IMG/VR virus record: IMGVR_UViG_2645728113_000006
DNA: 20,000 bases
Source of the DNA: an uncultured virus (IMG/VR IMGVR_UViG_2645728113_000006)
Lineage: Duplodnaviria > Heunggongvirae > Uroviricota > Caudoviricetes
Reading direction: 5' to 3' (one strand)
Position 1 is the stretch's first letter. Every line of letters begins with the position of its first letter. Below, piece by piece: positions 1,802 through 17,564 of this stretch. The translations under genes were made by a program, and so were the position numbers. The notes under the pieces are model-generated. The model ran no database searches and was not told the DNA's origin. It saw only the letters and a list, made by a program, of their open reading frames with translations.

Positions 1802-2554
1802 ATGGCACTGATCACGGACATCCAGAAACTGGAGCCCGGCGGCGAAATTCGCCTGTTCGAAATTGACGGGACCGAATACGGCGCGGATTACTTGCGTTTC
1901 CACGGTCACGCCATCCCGCACACGCCGGAGGAACTGCTGGCCTACGAGCATTCGGAAGAGGATCTTCCGGCCAAGTCGATTTGGTGGCAGGGCGAGGAGT
2001 ACGCGGCCTGGCCGGTACAGATTGAGGGTATTTCCTCGAGCAGCGACGGCACCGCCTCTCGGCCGACATTCGCCGCTGGGAACATCAATGGTCGCGTCAC
2101 GGCGTTGTGCCTCGCCTTCGAAGACATGCTGAAGTTCAAGCTGACGGTTCGCGAGACTCTGGCGCAGTACCTGGACGCGGCCAACTACCCCGAGGGCAAC
2201 CCGGCTGCTGACCCGACCCAGGAGGCGCTTGAGATCTGGTACATCGACCAGAAAACCAGCGAGGACGGTGAGGCGGTGGTCTGGGAGTTGTCTTCCCCGG
2301 GCGAGATCGACAACCACGGTCTGCCTGGCAGGCAGATGACGACGTTTTGCCACTGGGCAATGACCAATGGCTACCGGGGGCCGGATTGCGGCTACACCGG
2401 TGCGGCCATGTTCGATGATGAGGACAACCCCACGGACGATCCCGCCAAGGATCAGTGCAAGGGCTGCCTCTCGTCCTGCAAGTTGCGCTTCGGCGAGAAC
2501 AACGAACTGTCTTTCGGCGGATTCCCCGCCGTATCCCTTATTGCCCGGAGCTGA
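1802..2554 (+). CDS. Phage minor tail protein, lambda gpL-like
   Basis: 250 aa; IWWQGEEYAAWP motif and C-terminal Cys cluster (CHW...C.Y.G...DQC..CLSSC..RFG...FGGFP); synteny. Confidence 0.93.
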   Translation: MALITDIQKLEPGGEIRLFEIDGTEYGADYLRFHGHAIPHTPEELLAYEHSEEDLPAKSIWWQGEEYAAWPVQIEGISSSSDGTASRPTFAAGNINGRVTALCLAFEDMLKFKLTVRETLAQYLDAANYPEGNPAADPTQEALEIWYIDQKTSEDGEAVVWELSSPGEIDNHGLPGRQMTTFCHWAMTNGYRGPDCGYTGAAMFDDEDNPTDDPAKDQCKGCLSSCKLRFGENNELSFGGFPAVSLIARS

Positions 2555-2556
2555 CC

Positions 2557-3312
2557 ATGCGCAAGCACATCATTGCGGCCATCCAGGCGCACGCGGCAGC
2601 CGAGTACCCGCGCGAGTGCTGCGGCCTGCTGCTGGCCGTCGGTAGGGCGCAGAAGTACGTCCCGTGTCGAAACATCGCCACGGAGCCTAACGAAGAGTTC
2701 CGTCTTGATCCCGAGGATTACGCTGCTGCGGAAGACCAAGGCGAGGTGATCGGGATTGTTCACTCCCATCCGGACGCCACAAGCAGGCCGTCACCGCACG
2801 ACTTGGCCATGTGCGAGGCCACGGCCTTGCCCTGGCACATATTATCGTGGCCTGAAGGGGACTTGCGCACGGTCATGCCCTCCGGCAGCACGCCGTTACT
2901 CAAACGACCATTTGTTCATGGGGTATGGGACTGTTGGGCGATATGCGCCGAGTGGTACCAGCGTGAATGGGGGATTGAGTTTGAAGCCTTCCAGCGCACC
3001 GATGGCTGGTGGGAGAGTGCGGAGAACGCAAGCCTATACGAGCAGCACTACGAGGCCGCCGGCTTTGTACGCGTCGACCGACCGCAGCGCGGTGACATGA
3101 TCGTTATGCAGGTTGGCCGGACGGCGCATCCTAATCATGCAGGGATCTATCTGGGCACTGATCCGGCGCTACCCGACGAAGAGTCAGGCACTTTCGGCCC
3201 TGGGCCGTTCCTGCTGCATCACCTATACGGCAGGCCGTCCGAGATCATCGTCTATGGCGGGCCCTGGCATGACCGAACGCGCCTGATCCTGAGGCATAAA
3301 GTCGTCGCCTAG
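2557..3312 (+). CDS. Tail assembly protein, lambda gpK-like (JAB/MPN + NlpC/P60)
   Basis: Start at ATG 2557 (MRKHIIAAI). JAB motif YPRECCG...VHSHPD...PS..D and NlpC/P60 motifs DCW...NHAGIYLG...LHH. Confidence 0.93.
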   Translation: MRKHIIAAIQAHAAAEYPRECCGLLLAVGRAQKYVPCRNIATEPNEEFRLDPEDYAAAEDQGEVIGIVHSHPDATSRPSPHDLAMCEATALPWHILSWPEGDLRTVMPSGSTPLLKRPFVHGVWDCWAICAEWYQREWGIEFEAFQRTDGWWESAENASLYEQHYEAAGFVRVDRPQRGDMIVMQVGRTAHPNHAGIYLGTDPALPDEESGTFGPGPFLLHHLYGRPSEIIVYGGPWHDRTRLILRHKVVA

Positions 3313-3385
3313 GTTGTATGCCTGAACAGTATCGACTCGTCACGACAATCTACTTATCCTAGATTATTTGATACGAGATCAAATC

Positions 3386-4192
3386 ATGTTGCCCGAGCCA
3401 AGGCTGGCGCTAAACGAACTACTCAAGGAGCGAACCCTGCTCTGGCATAAGATTGCTGAAAATCATTATGTTGACGAGTTTGAGGTTCGGCGACTTTTTA
3501 ATAAGCTTGATCGGCTGATAACAGATCCCGGTGCCGAGTTCAGTATTGCACCAGCCGCTTTGCATGAGCAGGCATATCTTTACGCTTACCAAATGAAAAC
3601 CTCTAACGCCCTGCGGTTGTTTGAAGATGCTCGCCGTGCGGGACTTGATGGGCTTGCCGTATCAATTTCTACGGCCCATGCTTTATATATTTGTGGCGAG
3701 GTCGAAATGTCCAGGGAAGAGATATTGCGTACTGACTATTCTGATGCGAATAACAGGGGGCTGTCAGGGCTGGCTGATACCTGCGTTCATACTGGCTTGC
3801 TGAAAATGGCCAGGGATCTTTACATTCGGTCTGGAAAACAGGGTGGCGAAGTAAGCACTCAAGTTTTGCGTGCGGCCGAAATAATGGACCAGATTGGCGC
3901 GACGGATGAACAAGTAATGCGCAGGATCGCGACGGCTGCAAAAATTATCAAGTCTATGTCTGCGCATCCGTTCATTGCATTTGACCTGTTCGCTATGCAG
4001 GGCGAGGGAATCCTCTACCGCTTCGTAGTGAATGGGAGTACTGAAAGGCTGGTCGAGATTGATATGGCAATTGATGAGGCATTAATCGCTGATTTCGATG
4101 AGGAAATTGATGACGTATTGTCGATTGGGATTGCGCCTTATGAGTTCGGTTCGAATATGTTAGCTGCGGATGGTTATTATGTCGGTGTGTAG
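3386..4192 (+). CDS. Hypothetical moron protein, helical/TPR-like N-terminus; possible partner of the downstream HEPN protein
   Basis: Long ORF (ATG 3386, alternative TTG 3368) with lower GC than the tail genes; overlaps the next gene by 14 nt. No family recognised with confidence. Confidence 0.65.
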   Translation: MLPEPRLALNELLKERTLLWHKIAENHYVDEFEVRRLFNKLDRLITDPGAEFSIAPAALHEQAYLYAYQMKTSNALRLFEDARRAGLDGLAVSISTAHALYICGEVEMSREEILRTDYSDANNRGLSGLADTCVHTGLLKMARDLYIRSGKQGGEVSTQVLRAAEIMDQIGATDEQVMRRIATAAKIIKSMSAHPFIAFDLFAMQGEGILYRFVVNGSTERLVEIDMAIDEALIADFDEEIDDVLSIGIAPYEFGSNMLAADGYYVGV

Positions 4193-4556
4193 TGATGATC
4201 TGTTGTTGTTAGCCGAGTCACTTATTGGAAGTAAGGATGAGGTTGGCAATCGTGCGAGCATAAGCAGAAGTTATTATGCACTGTACCATGAGGCTACAAT
4301 AGCCGCATCGGCGCTCTCTTTAAAAAGCAATCCAGATGTAAAAACAAGTCACGATAAATTAATTTCGCGCTTTACCGGTGCGACTAAAGGTCTTGCCTCA
4401 ATTGGGCGCGGCATTCTCAAGCAAAAGCGATTGCGTGCAATGGCTGACTATGAGATCGGCTCAGATCTCAATGCGTCCGAGGCGAGGTTCCATTTGGCTA
4501 CAAGCAAGCGGCTTGTAAGTGACTTGCGAAGGATCGCTGATCCTGCGAACTCTTAA
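4179..4556 (+). CDS. HEPN-domain protein (putative toxin/RNase)
   Basis: 125 aa from ATG 4179. RASISRSYYALYH and R..ADYE motifs are typical of small HEPN proteins. Confidence 0.75.
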   Translation: MSVCSDDLLLLAESLIGSKDEVGNRASISRSYYALYHEATIAASALSLKSNPDVKTSHDKLISRFTGATKGLASIGRGILKQKRLRAMADYEIGSDLNASEARFHLATSKRLVSDLRRIADPANS

Positions 4557-4815
4557 GATCTTTGCTGGATCAGGTCTTGAACAGAGTTTTCCTGTTATCC
4601 GCCACCCTGCTACAGTCCCGCCAAACCAAAGAGGGAACGACATGCGGATTTTTGCTGTGATGTGCGAGGACCATTGATGTGATGCTGTGTTAGAGCGCAA
4701 GAGACTTTGGCAGTTTTATATGGAAGAGCGAGAAATCGCGAGTAGCTCCTATTGATTGCTGGCGCTGATCATGGCCGAATGATAGCTTTCAACCGTATTA
4801 ATTTTTTTCCACGGA

Positions 4816-5691
4816 GTGGATGTGCCAGCCCTTATTCCCCAATTGGTCAATGCTGCACTCGATCCTCATACATCGGTTGCCAGCTTGCTAAGGCATGCGC
4901 TAGTAGCGGCAAATAGGCTTAGTCTCGTTGACCTGGCCGATTGGATGAGTTCGGAACTCAATGGCTACAAAACCGCTTCACTGCCGGAGTATAGAAAGCT
5001 CCGTGGCACTCTCATTTGTGAGCACGAATTTGGGGGGTGGATGCCTTTAGAGGTCACGCATGCGGCAACCCTTAATATGGTGTCTCAGCGACCGTTCTAT
5101 CAGTCCATCCCGGAATTAGAGCGATTAACTAGCAGCGGCGGGCCTTTCGTCGTTTTTTTTCCTCCAAAGAATGAAGTTTACTTACGCTCATTAATGAGGC
5201 CACCGACTAGGCCGGCAGTGGAAATACAGGCGAGCCAGATATTTGGCCTAATAGAGCTAGTTCGTAGCAGAATATTACAGTGGGCACTAGACCTTGAGTC
5301 CAAAGGGGTTATGGGTGAAGGTATGTCGTTTACATTGCAGGAGCGTCAGATCGTGGCTGCACAGCACTACCATTTTGGCGATGTTACTGGATCTCAAATT
5401 CAAATTGGCTCGAGTGGGTCGAATCAGTCCATCGCACCCGGTGACAGCACGGGAGCAATGAATGCGTTAATCAACCTGCTTCGTGATGTTCTAGCTCGGA
5501 ACGAGATTGATGGCGATGTGGCTGCCGAGTTGGTTGCCGAGCTCAAGACTCTGGAAGCTCAAGCCGAATCACCACGGCCTAAGGCATCAATTATCAGAGA
5601 AACCGCGCTGAGTATTCAGAGGGTCTTAGAGGGGGTTGCCGGTAACGTATTAGCGACCGCCGCTCCATTGATTTATTCGCTGGTGAGTTGA
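4816..5691 (+). CDS. AbiTii-domain protein (putative abortive-infection effector)
   Basis: N-terminus ALDPHTSVASLLRHALVAANRL...W...ELNGY...LPEYRKLRG resembles the AbiTii domain as I recall it. GTG start after GGA; terminator follows. Confidence 0.75.
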   Translation: MDVPALIPQLVNAALDPHTSVASLLRHALVAANRLSLVDLADWMSSELNGYKTASLPEYRKLRGTLICEHEFGGWMPLEVTHAATLNMVSQRPFYQSIPELERLTSSGGPFVVFFPPKNEVYLRSLMRPPTRPAVEIQASQIFGLIELVRSRILQWALDLESKGVMGEGMSFTLQERQIVAAQHYHFGDVTGSQIQIGSSGSNQSIAPGDSTGAMNALINLLRDVLARNEIDGDVAAELVAELKTLEAQAESPRPKASIIRETALSIQRVLEGVAGNVLATAAPLIYSLVS

Positions 5692-5695
5692 TGCC

Positions 5696-5720
5696 AGCCC
5701 AGTCCCGCGCTGGGCTTTTT
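5696..5720 (+). terminator. Rho-independent terminator
   Basis: AGCCCAG-tcccgcg-CTGGGCT-TTTT between convergent genes. Confidence 0.8.
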
Positions 5721-5723
5721 GCT

Positions 5724-6272
5724 TTAAACATTCCGAGGAGTTCGCCGATCCTTGAGTACGGAATCTAGGTCTCGTGCTAATTGGTCGGCGAGAATTCCGA
5801 GGATTGTCCATATGGCCATTGAGCGGGTGCGGATGACAATCGCATGCGTCTCCTCATCCTCTCCTTCGGGCTCATAAGGCGTGAAATTCTTCTGATACAC
5901 GGCGAACCCGATCGGCTCGCTGATTTTGAAGAATTTTGCTAGCAGAGGCTGCAAGCGCACTGGTTCGTTTCGATGTCCTACCGCGTTGCGAAGGTTATTT
6001 AGCGCCTTAATCGAATCCCATAGTTCAGGCTCCATAGCTGAACCCACGATTGCCCTGCAGAGCTCCGTAGCAGTGCCGAAAGTAAAAATATCGTTTCGGC
6101 TATAAGGGCGAGAGTATTGGGCTACCCCAGCGGCTATCAGATCATGCAATTGCTCCTCGACAATCATGTGGCCGCGTAGCACTGCCGACAGCAGTTCACT
6201 GTCCCGTTCGAAGGTGCGATGAAACTGCGCGGTCTTCTTCTCGATGTCCTTTGCGAAAAGTTCTCTTTTCAT
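5724..6272 (-). CDS. HEPN-like (MtlR/DUF4145-type fold) protein with an Rx4H motif
   Basis: 182 aa; VLRGHMIVEEQL...LNNLRNAVGH contains R-x4-H preceded by the usual helix pattern. Confidence 0.6.
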   Translation of the reverse strand: MKRELFAKDIEKKTAQFHRTFERDSELLSAVLRGHMIVEEQLHDLIAAGVAQYSRPYSRNDIFTFGTATELCRAIVGSAMEPELWDSIKALNNLRNAVGHRNEPVRLQPLLAKFFKISEPIGFAVYQKNFTPYEPEGEDEETHAIVIRTRSMAIWTILGILADQLARDLDSVLKDRRTPRNV

Positions 6273-6365
6273 AGTCTTCTTTGCTTGGGTAGCTTCACAA
6301 CTAGCCCGGCGGGCCGGGCTTGGTGATTCGATTTAGTTATGGTGATCACCACCATTATCGGGTCT

Positions 6366-6851
6366 TCATTGCGGCATCGGTGGCCAGCTTTTGGACTCTT
6401 CGACTACGTTGGCGATTACTTCTTCGATGGTTGTCTTTTCGCCGCGAGCCTCGGCATGAAAAAGATCAATTATTGCGTTGAGCATTATTTCCTGTGTGAC
6501 GCCATGCTTCGCTGCTTCGCCTTGTAGATTTTCGATGGTGCTTTTCGGTAACGCTAGGACTAGGTCTTTCTTGCCCTCAGCGACTAGCGCCATTTCTAAA
6601 ACCTCGGGCTGGTCATCAACATCCTGCAGTTTTTCCACTTCACAACCGAGTGCTTTAGAGAGCTTGACTAATGCGGTCATGCGAGGAACCGAGGTGCCCA
6701 TCTCATACCGTCCTATTTGAGGAACGCTTAAGCCACTCGCCTTCGCAAGATCGCGCTGTGTCATTCCCGCGTCTGCGCGGAGGCGGACGAGCCGGGAAGG
6801 GAAGCCTTTCGGGTGGTACATGCTGATTCCATACTGTGGTGTGGAAAACAT
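6366..6851 (-). CDS. XRE-family HTH transcriptional regulator with a possible C-terminal ribbon-helix-helix-like segment
   Basis: RLVRLRADAGMTQRDLAKASGLSVPQIGRYEMG is a classic XRE HTH. Divergent from the arc/antirepressor genes. True start could be the internal Met (MYHPKG). Confidence 0.85.
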   Translation of the reverse strand: MFSTPQYGISMYHPKGFPSRLVRLRADAGMTQRDLAKASGLSVPQIGRYEMGTSVPRMTALVKLSKALGCEVEKLQDVDDQPEVLEMALVAEGKKDLVLALPKSTIENLQGEAAKHGVTQEIMLNAIIDLFHAEARGEKTTIEEVIANVVEESKSWPPMPQ

Positions 6852-6955: not shown

Positions 6956-7123
6956 ATGAGGTCGGAAAAATCGCGATACCCGCTCAGCTTGGAGGCATCT
7001 GTGAAAGTGCAGGCAGAAGGTGAAGCAAAGAAAAATCGACGCAGTTTGAATGCCGAACTCGGACTGTTAATCGAGGAGGGACTGAAATGGAGGGAGCAAA
7101 CGAGCAAGCAGGCAGTAGCCTAA
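6956..7123 (+). CDS. Arc-like ribbon-helix-helix repressor (55 aa, absent from the ORF track)
   Basis: Manual translation: MRSEKSRYPLSLEASVKVQAEGEAKKNRRSLNAELGLLIEEGLKWREQTSKQAVA*. Arc signature A..N.RSLNAE; strong RBS TAAGGAGG. Confidence 0.85.
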   Translation: MRSEKSRYPLSLEASVKVQAEGEAKKNRRSLNAELGLLIEEGLKWREQTSKQAVA

Positions 7124-7191
7124 AACGAAGAAACCCCGGCTTGCAGGCCAGGGCTTCGGGTAACGAGATCAACTACCAGGAAGAAATCGTC

Positions 7192-8055
7192 ATGAGCGAT
7201 ATTAGCACAACCGTTTCGAATGTCATCCCGTTCAATTTCGGCAAGCAGCAGGTGCGTACGCTGCTGATTGATGATCAGCCGTGGTTCGTGGCTAACGATG
7301 TTTCTGCTGCGCTTCAGTACAGCGAAGCGTCGGCGATGACTCGGCATTTGGACGACGATGAAAAGGGTCTGTCGATTGTGCAGACCCTTGGCGGCGATCA
7401 GGAAATGCTGGTCATCAACGAGTCAGGCCTTTACTCGGCAATCCTGCGCAGCCGTAAGGCTGAAGCCAAACGCTTTAAGAAGTGGGTCACCGCTGAAGTC
7501 CTCCCGGCGATTCGCAAGCAGGGCAGCTACCAAGATTCCAGCAATAAAATGAAGGCGCTGATGGATGATCTGGTCGACATGACCGAGACGAATGCACTGA
7601 AGGGCTTGGCGCGCCACAAGGTGGCACATCTTCCAGCCTCCATTCAGCGCAGTGCTTCCGCTCGTATTTATTCGGCAGTGCACACACGTTTCAACGTGCC
7701 GCGTCTTGAGCTTATCCCTGCAAGCCAGTTCGAGTCGGCGTGCAACTTCATCGCGGCCTACGCCGTTCTTGAGGGAGAGTTCATTCCGAAGGGGAACGGC
7801 AAGCCATTCGACATCCCGGAGAAGCTTGGCCAGTGTGAGCGCTATCTCGTCAGCGCAGATCCTCACGGCAATCGGCAGGTCACGCCGGTGCCAATGGGGG
7901 CGTTCGTCCTGACTCGGCAGCAGTTCATGCAGTCAATGCTTGTTGATCGAGATATGCCAGTTTCCACAGCGGAGATGTTCGAGTTTGTAGCGCTGGCGAC
8001 CGAAAACCTGCGCTACCGCTTTCTGTTCCAGGCTGCCCGGAGGGACGCAGCATGA
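7192..8055 (+). CDS. BRO-N domain phage antirepressor
   Basis: FNFGKQQVRTLLIDDQPWFVANDV...INESGLYSAILRSRKAEAKRFKKWVTAEVLPAIRKQG is BRO-N; followed by a P22 Ant C-terminal-like region (VHTRFNVPRLELIPASQF). ATG 7192 follows AGGAAG. Confidence 0.9.
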   Translation: MSDISTTVSNVIPFNFGKQQVRTLLIDDQPWFVANDVSAALQYSEASAMTRHLDDDEKGLSIVQTLGGDQEMLVINESGLYSAILRSRKAEAKRFKKWVTAEVLPAIRKQGSYQDSSNKMKALMDDLVDMTETNALKGLARHKVAHLPASIQRSASARIYSAVHTRFNVPRLELIPASQFESACNFIAAYAVLEGEFIPKGNGKPFDIPEKLGQCERYLVSADPHGNRQVTPVPMGAFVLTRQQFMQSMLVDRDMPVSTAEMFEFVALATENLRYRFLFQAARRDAA

Positions 8056-8627
8056 GCATGGAACTTGTCACACTAAAAATTACCGGCACGTCACCGCTGA
8101 TGATGCACAGCGACAAGCTGGCCAACCCTTTGAATCCAGCAACAAAGGCTCACAAGGAATTGACCGGTAAGCGCAAGAAGACGGACGACGATCATCTTGC
8201 CATTGCTCGCTCTGAGTTTATCGCTGGTGCCTACCACGATGAAAAGCTTGGCTTTTTTGTGCCAGGTGCGAATTTCGATGCGACGTTCTTGGCTGGCGCG
8301 AAGCTCCAAAAGCTGGGCACTCAATGGAAGCGCGGAGCGGTTGTGATGACTGACAAGGCGAAGCTTGAGTTCTCTGGCCCGACAACGCCTGACTCTCTTT
8401 GGGAGGATCAGCGGTTCGTTGACTGCCGCGGAGTAAAAGTTGGTCAAGCCAAGATCATGCGATACCGCCCGATCTTTCTTGAGTGGGCCGTGGAGCTGGA
8501 AGTTGCAATCAACGCTGACGTACTCAACATCGAGGAAGCAAAAAAAGCGATCACTGATTCTGGCCTGTTGATTGGGGTCTGTGAATACAGACCGCGCTTC
8601 GGTCGCTTCGAGGTGGAATATGTCTGA
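8052..8627 (+). CDS. Stand-alone Cas7/RAMP-like RNA-binding protein (candidate Vipr-type effector)
   Basis: 191 aa with RAMP hallmarks recognised by eye: N-terminal strand LKITGTSPLMMH, FFVPGANF (cf. IPGSS.KG), RYRPIFLEWAVELEV, and a C-terminal Gly-rich loop GLLIGVCEYRPRFGRFEV. ATGA-coupled to the antirepressor and upstream of a structured RNA array. Confidence 0.75.
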   Translation: MSMELVTLKITGTSPLMMHSDKLANPLNPATKAHKELTGKRKKTDDDHLAIARSEFIAGAYHDEKLGFFVPGANFDATFLAGAKLQKLGTQWKRGAVVMTDKAKLEFSGPTTPDSLWEDQRFVDCRGVKVGQAKIMRYRPIFLEWAVELEVAINADVLNIEEAKKAITDSGLLIGVCEYRPRFGRFEVEYV

Positions 8628-9078
8628 GTTGACAAAGCACCCGAGCTATAAGCAAGCCGTTGAAGACTTCCTCAAGGAGTTCAAATACGGTGATTTGGTC
8701 GGACATGAATGGCTGGAGGCTCGTTTCGGCATGCCGTCAATGACCGATTCGAAGTCGCTGACTGTTGAGAAGTTTCGTGAGCGTCAGTTCGAGTGGCTGG
8801 CGAACGTCGAGGCATTCAAGTCGGACTTGCTCAAACATCATCAAGTCTGCCTTCAGTCAGTGCGCGGGCGTGGTTATCGATGGGTGCCGCCTCATGAGCA
8901 GACAGAAGTTGCGGTAACTGAGTTGGGCCGGAATGTCAGGAAGGCGTTTCGCGGGAGTGGAGAAAAGCTGAGAAATTTGAGGATTACGGAGCTTACCGAT
9001 GATCAGCGACGGGCAAACCTTGACGCTGTTGCAAAGTTTTCCGCGCTCCAGGGCATGACTCGAAAGGCTCTTGGTTAA
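8620..9078 (+). CDS. Hypothetical protein, accessory gene between the RAMP-like gene and the RNA array
   Basis: 152 aa from ATG 8620 (MSELTKHPSY), 8-nt overlap with the RAMP gene. LQSVRGRGYRWV resembles a winged-helix wing. Stop codon lies inside the first array repeat. Confidence 0.75.
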   Translation: MSELTKHPSYKQAVEDFLKEFKYGDLVGHEWLEARFGMPSMTDSKSLTVEKFRERQFEWLANVEAFKSDLLKHHQVCLQSVRGRGYRWVPPHEQTEVAVTELGRNVRKAFRGSGEKLRNLRITELTDDQRRANLDAVAKFSALQGMTRKALG

Positions 9079-9130
9079 TAGCAGCGTAATATCCTTTCTA
9101 TGAGAGGGCATTGCGGTGCGAATGCATCAT

Positions 9131-9190
9131 GTGGCGTGGCGAGACAAGGTTGGGCGAGGTCTGGTTAGGTCGGGCATGTCTAGGTGAGGG
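9131..9190 (+). ncRNA. Putative guide tract 1 (12 NN-GGY pentamers)
   Basis: GT-GGC GT-GGC GA-GAC AA-GGT TG-GGC GA-GGT CT-GGT TA-GGT CG-GGC AT-GTC TA-GGT GA-GGG; exact 5-nt register. Confidence 0.8.
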
Positions 9191-9245
9191 CTGACAACAG
9201 CGTAATGCCGATTGGAATCAGTCGGCATTGCGGTGGCAGAAGCCG

Positions 9246-9310
9246 CTGGCAGGTTCTGGTCCGGCAAGTCGCGGCTAGGCCCGGCGGGGTGTGATTTGAT
9301 TTGGTATGGG
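9246..9310 (+). ncRNA. Putative guide tract 2 (13 NN-GGY pentamers)
   Basis: CT-GGC AG-GTT CT-GGT CC-GGC AA-GTC GC-GGC TA-GGC CC-GGC GG-GGT GT-GAT TT-GAT TT-GGT AT-GGG; exact 5-nt register. Confidence 0.8.
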
Positions 9311-9375
9311 CTGATAACAGCGTAATGTCTCTTCTTGGAGGAGGCATTGCAGTTTTAGAAGGTTTCGATTGACAT

Positions 9376-9449: not shown

Positions 9450-9851
9450 ATGAAACTGTTCGTAGGATTTTTTTTTATTTTGAGCTTGGTCGGCTGCTCT
9501 AGTTCGCCCATATCTGCCGACAAGGCCGATCCGGTGCCAAGCTCTCGGCTTTATGCCTTCGCTGCAAAGTCCGATTCTCAACTCATTGTTACCCGAGATG
9601 GCGGGATGTTTGGATCTGGATGCAATTACCGTTTCTATATCAATGGGGAGCTTGCTGCCGAATTCTCCTCGGGGGAGGTGGCCAGGTTTGGTGTTAAGGC
9701 CGGCCGAGTAGTGCTTGGCGCGAAGCCAAGCGCAGCTTGCGGGGGAGGGATGATGGTTGAGCGCGATGTCGAAATAAAAAGCGGAGAAGTTTTGAGAAGA
9801 AGAATATCCATGTCGCCCGGCGGTCCAGATATATCAGCTACCGCTTATTGA
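9450..9851 (+). CDS. Lipoprotein moron
   Basis: Signal peptide with lipobox LVGC (MKLFVGFFFILSLVGC); RBS GAGGGAG; terminator downstream. Confidence 0.85.
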   Translation: MKLFVGFFFILSLVGCSSSPISADKADPVPSSRLYAFAAKSDSQLIVTRDGGMFGSGCNYRFYINGELAAEFSSGEVARFGVKAGRVVLGAKPSAACGGGMMVERDVEIKSGEVLRRRISMSPGGPDISATAY

Positions 9852-9858
9852 TCCCATT

Positions 9859-9883
9859 AAGCCCGCTACAGCGGGTTTTTTTT
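9859..9883 (+). terminator. Rho-independent terminator
   Basis: GCCCGCT-ac-AGCGGGT followed by a T run. Confidence 0.75.
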
Positions 9884-9898
9884 CGCCTGGAGAAAACT

Positions 9899-10498
9899 AT
9901 GTCAGCACTCGCAATTAATTATCAGCCGATGACTACCATCTTGCTTTATGGGCAGCTTAGGCAATTTGGAAGATCTTTCAGGTTGTCAGTTAAGTCCCCA
10001 GCCGAGGCTATCAAGGCGCTATGCGTACAGATCCCTGGCTTCGAGCGGTTCCTGTCGAACGCCAAGTCTCGCGGCATTGAGTTTGCCGTGTTTCGAGGGT
10101 CAAAAAATCTTGCAGAAAAAGAATTAGGATTTGGCGGTTCCGGAGAAATCCGTATAGCGCCTGTAATTACGGGCCGAAAGCGCGCAGGCCTGATGCAGAC
10201 CATTTTGGGCGCCATATTGATTGTGGTAGGTTTTTTTGCTTTCGGGTCGACAACAACTACAGGCGCAGCGCTCATAGCGGGCGGTATCGGTAGTGCTGCT
10301 GGGGGCGTAATCCAAATGCTTAGTCCGCAGGCGGCAGGCCTCAAGATGAGCGCTGCGCCCGAAAACCAGCCTGGATATGCATTTGGCTCGGCGCAGAACA
10401 CAACTGCATCCGGCAACCCGGTCCCGCTCTGCTACGGCAAGCGCAGGGTCGGCGGGGCGATTATTAGCGCCGCGATATACGCCGAAGACCAGATGTAG
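9899..10498 (+). CDS. Tail assembly protein, lambda gpI-like
   Basis: ATG 9899 after GGAGA. LYGQLRQFG...SPAEAIKALC ubiquitin-like N-terminus, a hydrophobic Gly-rich segment, and YAFG...GNPVPLCYG. Confidence 0.92.
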   Translation: MSALAINYQPMTTILLYGQLRQFGRSFRLSVKSPAEAIKALCVQIPGFERFLSNAKSRGIEFAVFRGSKNLAEKELGFGGSGEIRIAPVITGRKRAGLMQTILGAILIVVGFFAFGSTTTTGAALIAGGIGSAAGGVIQMLSPQAAGLKMSAAPENQPGYAFGSAQNTTASGNPVPLCYGKRRVGGAIISAAIYAEDQM

Positions 10499-10557: not shown

Positions 10558-13500
10558 ATGGGCGCAGCACAAAAGATCGATATACACGGCGCCAAAGGCG
10601 GCGAAGGTAAACCAAAAACGCCGACTGAGGCCCCGGACAGTCTGCGCTCTGTTGCTATCGCAAAAATGCTCATTGCCGTGGGCGAGGGTGAGTTCGAGGG
10701 CACGCCAACTGCCAAAGACATCTATCTCGACAACACGCCCCTGCAAGACCCTCAAGGCAACATAAATTTCCCGAACGTGAAGTGGGAGTGGCGCACCGGT
10801 GCCGTGGACCAGAGCTATATCCAGGGCATCCCTTCGGTCGAGAACGAGACCACGATCAGTACCGAGCTGCGCAGCGGGACACCGTGGGTACGGGCCATCA
10901 GCAATACCCAGCTTTCCGCTGTTCGCGTCCGTTTTGCGTGGCCTGTGCTTCAGTCCGTGGACTCTGGTGGCAACGTCAATGGCTACCGGATTGAATACAA
11001 GGTTGAGCTGGCCACCGATGGCGGCGCCTATCAGCAGGTGCTGAGCGAGGCTGTCGACGGCAAGACCACCAGCCTGTACGAGCGCACGCGCCGTATCAAT
11101 TTGCCGAAGGCCACTTCTGGTTGGCTGATGCGGATCACTCGCCTGACCGCGAATCAGAACAACAACAAAATCTCCGACACGATGCAAATTGCCGGCTTCA
11201 CCGAGGTGATCGACGCGAAGATCCGCTACCCGAATACTGCGCTGCTTTACATCGAGTTCTCGGCCGAGCAGTTCCGCAGCATTCCTGCCGTTACCGTCGA
11301 GACCAAACTGAAGAAGATGCAGGTGCCGAGCAACTACGACCCAGTGTCGCGCACCTACTCGGGCGTCTGGGATGGCACGTTTAAGCAGGCTTGGACCGAC
11401 AACGCGGTCTGGATGACCTACGACATCAGTACCGCCGACCGCTTCGGCCTGGGTCGCCGCATCAAGCCGTGGATGGTTGATATTTGGGAGTTGTATCGTA
11501 TTTCCCAATACTGCGACCAGTTGGTGCCGGACGGGAAGGGGGGCCTGGAACCGCGCTTCATCTGCAACTTGAACCTGCAGAGCAAAGCCGATGCCTGGTC
11601 ACTGCTGCGTGACATATCGGCGATCTACCGAGGCATGACCTACTGGGCCCAGGGCCAGGTCTTCACCCTGTCGGATATGCCGCGTGCCACTGACTTCGAC
11701 TTCGCCTATACCAGGGCCAACGTCCTTGACGGTAAGTTCACCTACTCCAGCGCGTCGGAGCGTACCCGGTACACCCGGGCGCTGATCAGCTACGACAACC
11801 CGCTGAACAACTACGACACCGATGTCACTGCTGTGACCGATGCAAAGCTCCAGCGGCGCTATGGTGACAATCCGCTGGAGATCAGCGCAATTGGTTGTAC
11901 CCGCGAGTCCGAGGCCCAGCGCCGCGGCAAGTGGGCGCTGCTGACCAACTCCAAGGATCGGGCGGTTACCTTCAAGGTCGGCCTCGACGGTCGCATCCCG
12001 CTTCCTGGTTACGTGATCCCCATTGCTGACGAACTGCTTGCAGGTCGGCCGGTGGGTGGCCGTATCTCGGCGGTGAACGGAAAGGTCATCACCCTGGACC
12101 GTGACACCCAGGCCAAGCCCGGCGACCGGTTGATCCTCAACTTGCCAGACGGCAAGTGCGAGGGGCGCACGGTGCAACTGGTCAGTGGCCGACAGGTCAC
12201 CGTAACCCTGGCCTACTCCGTACCACCGGAGCGTGAACTAGTGTGGGCGCTGGACGCCGACGATCTGGCGATCCCGCTTTACCGGGTGGTCAGCGTGGCG
12301 CGGCCAGAGCCCGGCGTATTTGAAATCTCAGCCGTGCAGTACGACCCCAGCAAGTTCGATCACATCGACACCGGCGCCCGGTTGGAAGAGCGGCCTATCA
12401 GCGTTGTACCGATCACCGTAGTTCCTGCCCCGACGAGCGTCGACATCACGTCGAACTACTCCGTGGACCAGGGCCTGGCAATCAGCACCATGAATATCTC
12501 GTGGCCTGCTGTGGCTGGCGCAGTGGCTTATGACGTGGAGTGGCGCAAGGACAGCGGAAACTGGATCAAGCTGCAGCGCACCGGCTCTACCAGCGTTGAC
12601 GTCACCGGCATTTACTCGGGCGCATATCTCGCCCGTGTTCGGTCGGTGAGCGCGTTCGAGATTTCGTCCATTTGGAAGAGCTCCAATCTGACCAACCTGG
12701 AAGGGAAGGTCGGCCTCCCGCCGGCCGTGGCGTTCCTGTCCACCACTAGCGAGCTGTTCGGCATTGGCATTCGCTGGGGTTTCCCGGCTGACGCCGAGGA
12801 TACCCAGCGCACCGAGCTCTGGTATGGACAGGCTAATGATCTGTCGGTGGCGACCAAACTCGCAGACTTGGCGCACCCCCAAGCGAATTACAGCATGCAG
12901 GCCCTAAAGGCCGGCGCGCAGTTCTTCTTCTGGGCTCGCCTGGTCGACCGTACCGGTAACGTTGGCCCGTTCTATCCCGTCGGTAACGGCGTGATGGGGA
13001 TGGCAAGTGCCGATGCGGCGCCGGTGCTGGATTTGATCGCCGGGCAGATTGGGCGTACGGAGCTGGGCAAGGACATCACGGACGAGATCGACAAGATCCC
13101 AGGGCTGCAGGCGCAGATCGACGCGCTCGATGGGTTGTCCGCCTACGACCCGGAGTCGACCTACCTTGAGTTTGACCTAGTGGTGGTTGGTAAGCGGATC
13201 TACCAGGCCACCGGCCCGGTACCCGTCGATACGCCACCACCGAATGCCAACTACTGGCAGGACGTGGGTCAGGCGGTGGTCACTGCCAATGGCCTTGCGC
13301 GTCAAGTTGAGATCAATACCACCAGCATCACCGAACTGGACGGGGTGGTCACGGCTCAGGCGTCAAGTCTTCAGGCGTTGCAATCGGCTTATCGGGACGA
13401 CACGGGGGAGGGGGATCTGGTTGATGCACTCCAGGGCTACAACGCCTCGGCGAGTTTCGCGCAGGAAGTGAAGACGCAGGCCACGAAGAACGCAGCCATG

Positions 13501-14121
13501 GTGCAGCGGCAGACCGAACTTACTGCAGAGGTGGGCGACGTCGCCGGCACCGTAACTGATCTGGAAAGAGTTGTGGTCACTGATCGGGAGGCGACTGCCC
13601 AGGCCATCCAGCAGGTCGGCGTGAAGATCGGCGAAAACACGGCTGATATCCAGACCGTGAGCAAGGCCCAAGCAGACACAGACGGCAAGCTCTCAACGAT
13701 GTGGTCCGTGAAGATGCAGCTCAATGCGAATGGCCAGTACGTCGCGGCAGGCATCGGGCTTGGTATCGAGAACGTAGATGGTCAGTTGCAGAGCCAGTTC
13801 CTGGTGAGCGCCGACAGGTTCGCCGTGGTGAACAACATCAATGGCGTGCTTTCTACACCATTCACCGTGCAGAACGGCCAGGTGTTCATGCGATCTGCCT
13901 TCATCGAGGACGGCAGCATCTCGATGCTGAAGATCGGTGAGGCTCTGCAGTCCAACAACTACGTCGCTGGCGTTCAGGGGTGGCGTTTGGATAAGGCCGG
14001 GAACCTTGAGTTCAACGGTCCGGCACCTGGTGGTGGACGCCTGACGATGACCAATCGTGCGATCAAGGTGTACGACGAAAACAACGTCAAGCGGGTGCAG
14101 CTAGGGGATCTGACAGCATGA
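10558..14121 (+). CDS. Host-specificity / central tail tip protein, lambda gpJ-like
   Basis: 1187 aa; GAKGG N-terminus, YPNTAL, WDGTFKQAWTDN, YCDQLVPDG.GG.EPRF, FN3-like repeats, and C-terminal SQFLVSADRFAV...GWRLDK.G. Confidence 0.96.
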   Translation: MGAAQKIDIHGAKGGEGKPKTPTEAPDSLRSVAIAKMLIAVGEGEFEGTPTAKDIYLDNTPLQDPQGNINFPNVKWEWRTGAVDQSYIQGIPSVENETTISTELRSGTPWVRAISNTQLSAVRVRFAWPVLQSVDSGGNVNGYRIEYKVELATDGGAYQQVLSEAVDGKTTSLYERTRRINLPKATSGWLMRITRLTANQNNNKISDTMQIAGFTEVIDAKIRYPNTALLYIEFSAEQFRSIPAVTVETKLKKMQVPSNYDPVSRTYSGVWDGTFKQAWTDNAVWMTYDISTADRFGLGRRIKPWMVDIWELYRISQYCDQLVPDGKGGLEPRFICNLNLQSKADAWSLLRDISAIYRGMTYWAQGQVFTLSDMPRATDFDFAYTRANVLDGKFTYSSASERTRYTRALISYDNPLNNYDTDVTAVTDAKLQRRYGDNPLEISAIGCTRESEAQRRGKWALLTNSKDRAVTFKVGLDGRIPLPGYVIPIADELLAGRPVGGRISAVNGKVITLDRDTQAKPGDRLILNLPDGKCEGRTVQLVSGRQVTVTLAYSVPPERELVWALDADDLAIPLYRVVSVARPEPGVFEISAVQYDPSKFDHIDTGARLEERPISVVPITVVPAPTSVDITSNYSVDQGLAISTMNISWPAVAGAVAYDVEWRKDSGNWIKLQRTGSTSVDVTGIYSGAYLARVRSVSAFEISSIWKSSNLTNLEGKVGLPPAVAFLSTTSELFGIGIRWGFPADAEDTQRTELWYGQANDLSVATKLADLAHPQANYSMQALKAGAQFFFWARLVDRTGNVGPFYPVGNGVMGMASADAAPVLDLIAGQIGRTELGKDITDEIDKIPGLQAQIDALDGLSAYDPESTYLEFDLVVVGKRIYQATGPVPVDTPPPNANYWQDVGQAVVTANGLARQVEINTTSITELDGVVTAQASSLQALQSAYRDDTGEGDLVDALQGYNASASFAQEVKTQATKNAAMVQRQTELTAEVGDVAGTVTDLERVVVTDREATAQAIQQVGVKIGENTADIQTVSKAQADTDGKLSTMWSVKMQLNANGQYVAAGIGLGIENVDGQLQSQFLVSADRFAVVNNINGVLSTPFTVQNGQVFMRSAFIEDGSISMLKIGEALQSNNYVAGVQGWRLDKAGNLEFNGPAPGGGRLTMTNRAIKVYDENNVKRVQLGDLTA

Positions 14122-17138: not shown

Positions 17139-17564
17139 ATGCCGACCGCAGAAACTCGAGGGGTGCGTAATCGCAACCCCGGCAACATCGACTACAACCC
17201 GGCCAACCAATGGCAAGGCCAGCTCAAGCCAGACCCCGCCATCGAGAAGCGCTTCGCCCGCTTCGACACTGCCGAGAATGGTATCCGAGCGCTGGGTAAG
17301 CTGCTGCTGACCTACCAGCGTAAGCATGGGCTTAAGACGGTGAAGGCCATTATCAGCCGCTGGGCACCATCGGTAGAGAACGACACCGCCGCCTATGTGC
17401 GCGCCGTCGAGACCAATACCGGCACCCGGCTGGGAGCTGAGATTGATCTGGCCAAGCCTGCAGTGATGTCTGGATTTGTGAAGGCGATCATCCATCACGA
17501 AAACGCGGGGTATGCCTACCCTGACGCTGTGCTGGCGGAAGGCGTGCGGCGGGCACTGGCATGA
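17139..17564 (+). CDS. Endolysin-like protein (lysozyme-like, RG.RN.NPGNI family)
   Basis: RGVRNRNPGNI...F.RF...E.GIRA...I.RWAP..ENDT.AY...HEN; lies upstream of the spanins. Confidence 0.8.
   Translation: MPTAETRGVRNRNPGNIDYNPANQWQGQLKPDPAIEKRFARFDTAENGIRALGKLLLTYQRKHGLKTVKAIISRWAPSVENDTAAYVRAVETNTGTRLGAEIDLAKPAVMSGFVKAIIHHENAGYAYPDAVLAEGVRRALA

Follow-up and report, generated by a model that had tools for sequence, protein, structure and literature searches.

In a phage-borne RNA-guided silencing locus, guide 2 corresponds to that version of tail gene I which is common in related phages, and the same phage carries a rare version. In the phage's own copy a short patch combines a switch of a serine codon from AGY to TCG with a Thr>Gln replacement, and this patch is likely kept coupled to the guide by selection, because self-silencing would thereby be prevented. 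The DNA analysed, here called the window, is a stretch of 20,000 nucleotides from an uncultured virus (IMGVR_UViG_2645728113_000006), and represents the tail region of a lambdoid prophage whose named relatives are Pseudomonas. An earlier note had interpreted the gene I site as self-escape by silent codon changes. Judged by the sequences compared, its observation is confirmed, the association of the patch with guide 2 is real and well-controlled, and its interpretation was partly overstated.

A type II VIPR locus among the tail genes

The insert between the tail genes K and I ends with vipr, a vap1-like gene and then the array (Table 1). Vipr is 43% identical over 192 aa to SUSP1 Vipr, matches the cryo-EM structure entered as 'SUSP1 Vipr protein' (PDB 36PP, E 1.3e-46) and retains the equivalents of H17, K33, R39, K82, R138 and R179, with D177 replaced by E and W178 by Y (residue numbering taken from 10.64898/2026.04.26.720927). 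The two-gene operon of type II VIPR is present, its vap1 member being recognised at E 6e-12. The array holds two guides between three tail elements, anchored at 9082, 9198 and 9318, and its repeat count and shared tails fit the type II vrRNAs, which in the available descriptions consist of 9-16 GGY/NN repeats and a conserved 3' tail. By sequence, the locus is thus assigned to type II VIPR, a known RNA-guided DNA-silencing system. As far as the available texts on Escherichia phage SUSP1 and a Pseudomonas fulva prophage clade describe it (10.64898/2026.04.26.720920, 10.64898/2026.04.26.720927), the vipr-vap1 operon, the downstream GGY/NN guide array and the conserved tails are shared, as are the 1-nt skip on wobble positions and the choice of rival-phage targets on either strand. 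Membership of the P. fulva clade is set at >90% identity to its Vipr, of which a PDB search returned no sequence. Since Vipr resembles SUSP1 Vipr and matches its structure, the 'gapped code' of the earlier note is the published VIPR rule, whereby of every three target bases a GGY/NN unit reads two and leaves one unread, as established experimentally according to the available text of 10.64898/2026.04.26.720920. Likewise, in the published work available, the Vipr-vrRNA complexes of other VIPRs bind DNA and repress transcription.

Neither Vipr nor Vap had a hit in the Pfam search, repeat finders missed the array, and the whole 121-nt fold computed for the guide 2 tail was not significant (z=-1.5). 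RNA-library contigs in three of four runs (two studies) cover the array of near relatives and not most of vipr, with strand and ends not shown, and give a weak hint of vrRNA expression. A Vipr search in whole genomes found few further carriers (4/400 genomes of the genus and 2/200 of relatives).

Other features of the region are recorded here in their own right. The interval 3368-6851 between K and I, likely a defence hotspot, contains, besides an AbiTii-domain gene (4816-5691) and a minus-strand HTH regulator, a gene of 182 aa and an unassigned one of 268 aa that is partnered by a gene of 128 aa. Upstream of vipr (6956-8055) a small gene, annotated as Arc-family at the corresponding place in phage Medea1, is followed by a Bro-N antirepressor as in that phage; at locus L274 the slot of vipr, vap and array is filled by other genes in the same Bro/lipoprotein context. 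A small lipoprotein-like gene without a Pfam hit, present in relatives too, lies between array and gene I (9450-9851). A 43-nt repeat (T-run, GCCTGGAGAAAA, start codon) at 9872, 10531, 15134 and 17112 precedes I, J, the tail fibre gene and a gene at 17139, and is possibly a shared terminator/ribosome-site motif and recombination joint.

Table 1. Positions of the VIPR locus, its guides and their sites within the window
Feature	Position	Strand	Description
K gene	2554-3312		tail region
vipr	8052..8627	+	RAMP-like effector, 191 aa; 43% identity to phiSUSP1 protein, E 6e-57
vap1-like accessory gene	8620..9078	+	24% identity, E 6e-12, to gene after SUSP1 vipr
Leading tail-like hairpin element of array	9078..9127	+	same layout in related arrays
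Guide 1	9133..9187	+	11 GGY/NN units, 9 canonical; gives VDKWELYRI of gene J, read in the coding sense
vrRNA tail with hairpins, between guides	9188..9247	+	
Guide 2	9248..9307	+	12 five-base units to tail, 8 canonical GGY; reverse complement gives gene I NTPGYAFGS
Guide 2 Ser unit	9253-9257		reads AG; window has TCG, Ser164 (10388-10390)
Guide 2 Thr unit	9288-9292		reads AC; window has CAG, Gln157 (10367-10369)
Guide 2 3' tail	9308..9348	+	predicted 13-bp hairpin
Gene I	9899..10498	+	lambda-like tail assembly protein; Pfam PF06805
Guide 2 self site	10358..10396	+	core 10364-10390; third positions A/T-rich
Gene J	10558..14121	+	tail tip protein; Pfam PF24801, PF09327
Guide 1 self site	11476..11508	+	K309I (ATT 11482-11484); Leu312 TTG (11491-11493; guide reads CT)
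Foreign-guide sites	10472-10498, 11476-11502, 8142-8168, 10375-10401		sites of other VIPR phages' guides

The guides and their own target copies

Reading the reverse complement with a skip of 1 nt places guide 2 antisense to codons 154-165 of gene I (10358-10393), with codons 156-164 forming the core. Six consecutive units (PGYAFG) and Asn156 match the window's gene, and the two core mismatches are those already described in the earlier note, namely Ser164, where the guide reads AGN and the amino acid is unchanged with both read bases swapped, and codon 157, where ACN has become CAG (T157Q). On the consensus target all 12 units score 19/24, with mismatches in the 5'-most unit and in both units next to the tail; these mismatches, as well as the K309I change in gene J, were absent from that note. 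The two tail-proximal units (9178-9187 in guide 1, 9298-9307 in guide 2) find no consensus match and vary among guide-1 carriers, the last very often reading AT; from their sequence they look loosely read, which is odd beside structures that resolve the tail end first.

The self match was rejected as stand-alone evidence, since it does not exceed genome background. It amounts to 14/18 on the nine-unit core, a chance value, and to 15/24 over 12 units; on the 10 tail-proximal units it is 15/20, whereas the 7.2 Mb host genome offers 10 places that score 16, and shuffled guides score 14-16 on the nine-unit core in a 760 kb pool. The support for the gapped code comes from the homologues: the guide 2 core scores 18/18 on 94 of 103 unique homologous segments, so that the match is real despite the chance-level self score. 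With skips of 0, 2 or 3 nt guide 2 reaches at most 14/18. For the two guides together 18/18 occurs only at skip 1, with 49 and 20 places at ≥17, and the controls remain at ≤15 for skips of 0, 2 and 3 and at ≤16 for 30 shuffles each, in a pool picked by a gene I motif, a choice which favours guide 2 and not guide 1. A co-resident target in the host was also rejected, because its genome contains one gene I and one vipr only.

The common form of gene I is clear from a survey of 103 unique non-self segments, collected with a search pattern that left both codons free and after removal of one window-derived segment: Ser164 is AGY in 96, TCN in 3 and other in 4, and codon 157 is ACN in 99. TCN is not, in other words, the usual codon irrespective of the system, a possibility that the earlier note had set against its own reading. 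A broader pattern gives an estimated 990 or so AGY and 150 or so TCN stretches, TCN making up about 13% of motif matches, and at least 22 Ser class changes are counted on a 128-allele tree that was deliberately TCN-enriched. TCN as a marker of VIPR carriage was rejected, since among the matches listed nearly all TCN loci are without vipr within 10 kb and AGY is present in 15 of the 17 loci that have VIPR and a comparable gene I but not guide 2. Glutamine at codon 157 is found in 51 viral contigs, 14 with Gln+TCN and 37 others (Gln+AGY in 32); the guide-2 pattern occurs in four contigs of the viral collection, all Gln+TCN, and in 0/37 other Gln contigs. The remaining Gln+TCN contigs comprise two with VIPR but not guide 2 and eight with no vipr in the available upstream DNA (≤7 kb). 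Gln+TCN exists in complete proviruses without a Vipr match (L117/L274, L568), as well as in L576 (63% complete) and L562 (12% complete). Dropped before these counts were duplicate loci of one contig, L520 with readings equal to a counted locus, L140, L145 and L169 with a divergent gene I/J lacking the motif, and L332, L338, L347, L373, L382 and L396, where the pattern matches outside gene I.

Guide 2 is carried by seven records including the window, one of them 100% identical to the window and so not independent. All seven have Gln+TCG, in only two distinct alleles: allele A (window, L127, L129, L334; guide 2 core 14/18) and allele B (L126, L128, L514; 12/18, with an additional Gly>Ser), which outside the site are 63% identical. 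The association between guide 2 and Gln+TCG is strong and rests on these two alleles. The stratification by guide 2 proposed in the earlier note gives TCG in 7/7 carriers against TCN in 2/17 guide-2-negative VIPR loci, with two alleles on the carrier side, the two exceptions (L134, L172) having arrays or alleles related to the window's. The claim of self-escape at gene I stands insofar as the norm is AGY and ACN and every carrier departs from it; against it, the Gln/TCN patch occurs also without guide 2.

Guide 1 and gene J offer a parallel, and J is the cleaner case. The guide finds 133 non-self loci at 18/18, and on the window's own J it scores 18/22 (82% over 11 units), the best site in the host genome; the available text of 10.64898/2026.04.26.720920 gives no self hit at ≥80%. 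The Leu swap reported earlier is present, and a silent TTR-Leu occurs in 27/224 non-carrier segments. K309I, found in 6/6 carrier segments and 0/224 non-carrier segments, is the most guide-specific mark; in L140, whose divergent J supplies a seventh carrier segment, the Lys is retained and the score is 14/18. In each of the two genes, therefore, the match is broken not silently, as had been supposed, because a silent swap and an amino-acid change stand together at each self site (T157Q in I, K309I in J). In L134, whose Vipr is 98% identical, guide 1 is missing and J is of the consensus form, and its guide against the end of gene I scores 13/18 on its own copy and 17/18 on the window, which shows that the mismatch follows the guide and not the lineage. 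Further clusters of rare substitutions at conserved codons occur at codons 57-62 and 87-89 of gene J in L134, L274 and L514, and are possibly traces of guides since lost.

The changes are concentrated in the footprints. Class switches at conserved Leu/Arg/Ser codons number 2/3 inside the two footprints and 3/81 outside (Fisher p=0.008), and the other conserved Ser codons at which the window still has Ser are of the majority class in 7/7. Departures from conserved dinucleotides are similarly distributed, with 4/18 inside and 8/541 outside for both footprints (p=3e-4), 2/9 and 4/448 for gene J (p=0.005), and 2/9 and 4/93 for gene I alone (p=0.087), where six of the nine inside positions are fixed by the search pattern.

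Possible origin and likely retention of the patches

The window's gene I is a divergent allele, 87-88% identical in nucleotides to its nearest non-carriers and ≤74% to the rest, with a GC3 of 0.57. Four VIPR-linked Gln+TCN alleles do not form one clade when the site is omitted (AU p=0.018, for a group named after the pattern was seen and a tree weakened by recombination), and a single Gln+TCN clade was thus rejected outside the patch. Fully independent origins are nevertheless unlikely because rare third bases in the patch are common to these alleles. Gln+TCN alleles differ at 26-34/87 upstream bases, yet at 3-8/42 in the patch, and these few differences together with the shared rare third bases point, at the level of sequence comparison, to recombination as the means by which a single short patch was spread. 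Allele B, with 10-13/42 patch differences, may be a separate origin; its gene I end is changed so as to fit L134's guide, which is absent from the B carriers, a change found also in some VIPR-less alleles, and arrays seem to turn over faster than patches. In many related prophages (L010, L026, L032, L041, L270, L335, L350, L361 and L399) gene I is present twice, as divergent copies in tandem separated by 0.6-1.1 kb, which suggests that cassettes of the K-I interval come with a gene I of their own and could supply patches. A contig designated X20, which covers both array and gene I and has 21 differences in 1,666 nt, was left out of the counts.

To judge from published reporter and phage assays, a guide bound within I or J would most likely lower the expression of tail genes in a competing lambdoid phage. 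A carrier would be viable only with mismatched alleles, and as carriers would survive only with such copies, selection would keep the rare patch beside the guide, be it imported or local. The patch, of some 40 nt, could move between gene I backgrounds by recombination and outlast the guide. AGY>TCG is a putative block of binding and at most a candidate escape mutation.

It is possible, if on balance doubtful, that the serine switch is only a passenger, with the mid-footprint Thr>Gln doing the work and TCG riding in the same patch. The matching part of guide 2 ends with the Ser unit, a non-canonical GTT repeat at the tail-distal edge, where according to the available text of 10.64898/2026.04.26.720927 the R-loop completes last, pairing advancing from the tail end, so that the weight of this unit in escape may be small. 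In the guide/self pairs compared most self mismatches are non-synonymous, and no silent swap is seen without a non-silent change at the same site; alleles with Gln+AGC exist, moreover (L034/L538). Against this, both carrier alleles are TCG although Gln+AGY contigs outnumber Gln+TCN contigs, and the AG-reading unit is unchanged in 7/7 carriers. In addition, a guide in the unpublished genome G104 reads TCN at the same codon, scoring 19/20 on the window against 16/20 on an AGC gene I, which is likely its cognate; since the latter lies on another contig, the linkage of guide and gene is itself inferred. The serine switch is the only silent way to alter both read bases, and here it acts together with an amino-acid change.

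Rather less probable is an origin de novo, in which guide 2 was gained first and the Ser and Thr changes then arose by mutation in the lineage carrying it, possibly aided by local mutagenesis under the bound complex, the patch-bearing non-carriers being ex-carriers or recipients. Such an origin would accord with the skipped third positions, which in J are A or T at 6/7 inside the footprint and 102/424 outside (p=0.001; population value inside 0.116) and in I at 6/8 inside and 36/94 outside (population 0.157). The shifted spans are 11476-11508 in J, coinciding with the 11-unit guide 1 footprint, and 10361-10390 in I. Carriers of allele B show the shift less strongly (3/6, 2/6), and it is not what selection confined to the read bases would predict. 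The J footprint ranks first among 591 nine-codon windows for departure from consensus, between consensus flanks, and the Ile allele of J occurs in six viral contigs, five with guide 1 and the sixth a fragment beginning inside J. L274, with other genes replacing VIPR in an otherwise similar context, and L568 and L572, which have a further rare change at the site of a different guide, also speak for it. On the other side, AGY to TCN requires two substitutions in one codon, import of a lower-GC allele would equally give an A/T-rich TCN patch, TCN with the Thr kept occurs in the VIPR-less relatives L279, L376 and L364, and the two sites have no consistent strand signature, a strand-specific C>T signature having been rejected because it fits J and not I.

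Mere coincidence of linkage, whereby the VIPR insert and its gene I neighbours were co-inherited with no selective tie, is improbable: gene I is indeed divergent throughout and the carriers are few and related, but mismatches occur in both of two unrelated gene I alleles, carriers whose J is otherwise 89% identical have 0/33 differences in the J patch, and in L134 the mismatch goes with the guide. We therefore return to retention of the patch beside its guide as the reading to be set against what is known of VIPR.

Six-fold codons and a wobble-skipping code

The window is in turn a target. Guides of other VIPR phages match it at 17/18, those of L134 at the end of gene I, of L140 in J and of L145 in vipr; the L140 guide reads TT at Leu312. 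Two guides of G104 also target the window at this score; publication of that genome needs its depositors' permission, and only this observation and the mirror guide at Ser164 depend on it. We would suggest, tentatively, that six-fold codons offer a loophole, in actual use, in the wobble-skipping code, and that they serve Pseudomonas lambdoid phages as a self/non-self barcode with two states, such that carriers flip the Ser/Leu/Arg class at the sites of their own guides, the guides of rivals answer by reading the flipped class, and a local scar rich in A/T stays behind where Vipr was bound, unread bases included.

In CRISPR a guide-bearing element generally persists only if its own target copy mismatches. 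The difference in VIPR is that ordinary third-position changes cannot break a wobble-skipping guide: the wobble base being skipped, only first- and second-position changes count. The main Pseudomonas targets in the available accounts of type II VIPR are lysis-lysogeny regulators, whereas here they are essential tail genes which the carrier has in common with its rivals and which are recoded locally. In the available text of 10.64898/2026.10.15.759431, guides that target vrRNA score lower on self than on non-self, and read positions stay conserved where skipped ones vary. Wobble skipping is presented as 'escape-proof', with synonymous escape held to be impossible, and escape is argued to need changes at amino-acid-determining positions. 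To this argument the Ser/Leu/Arg class switches are a silent exception, and a term search and the available text of the same preprint revealed no discussion of six-fold-codon switches. Mismatch tolerance and seed position were likewise not found in the available texts of the three preprints, and a literature search, largely outside subscription journals, for escape by a silent switch of serine codons or for self targets that had been recoded gave nothing relevant. The system is hence already known, and the six-fold-codon switches and recoded self targets are undescribed in the available VIPR texts and the searches covered.

The two sites provide natural paired examples in which guides are aimed at essential genes common to rivals and self is spared, with the silent route, a Ser, Leu or Arg class switch, seen in use beside amino-acid changes. 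Such site pairs are ready substrates for determining the mismatch tolerance and seed position of VIPR, and the recoded skipped bases raise the testable question of mutagenesis at VIPR-bound DNA.
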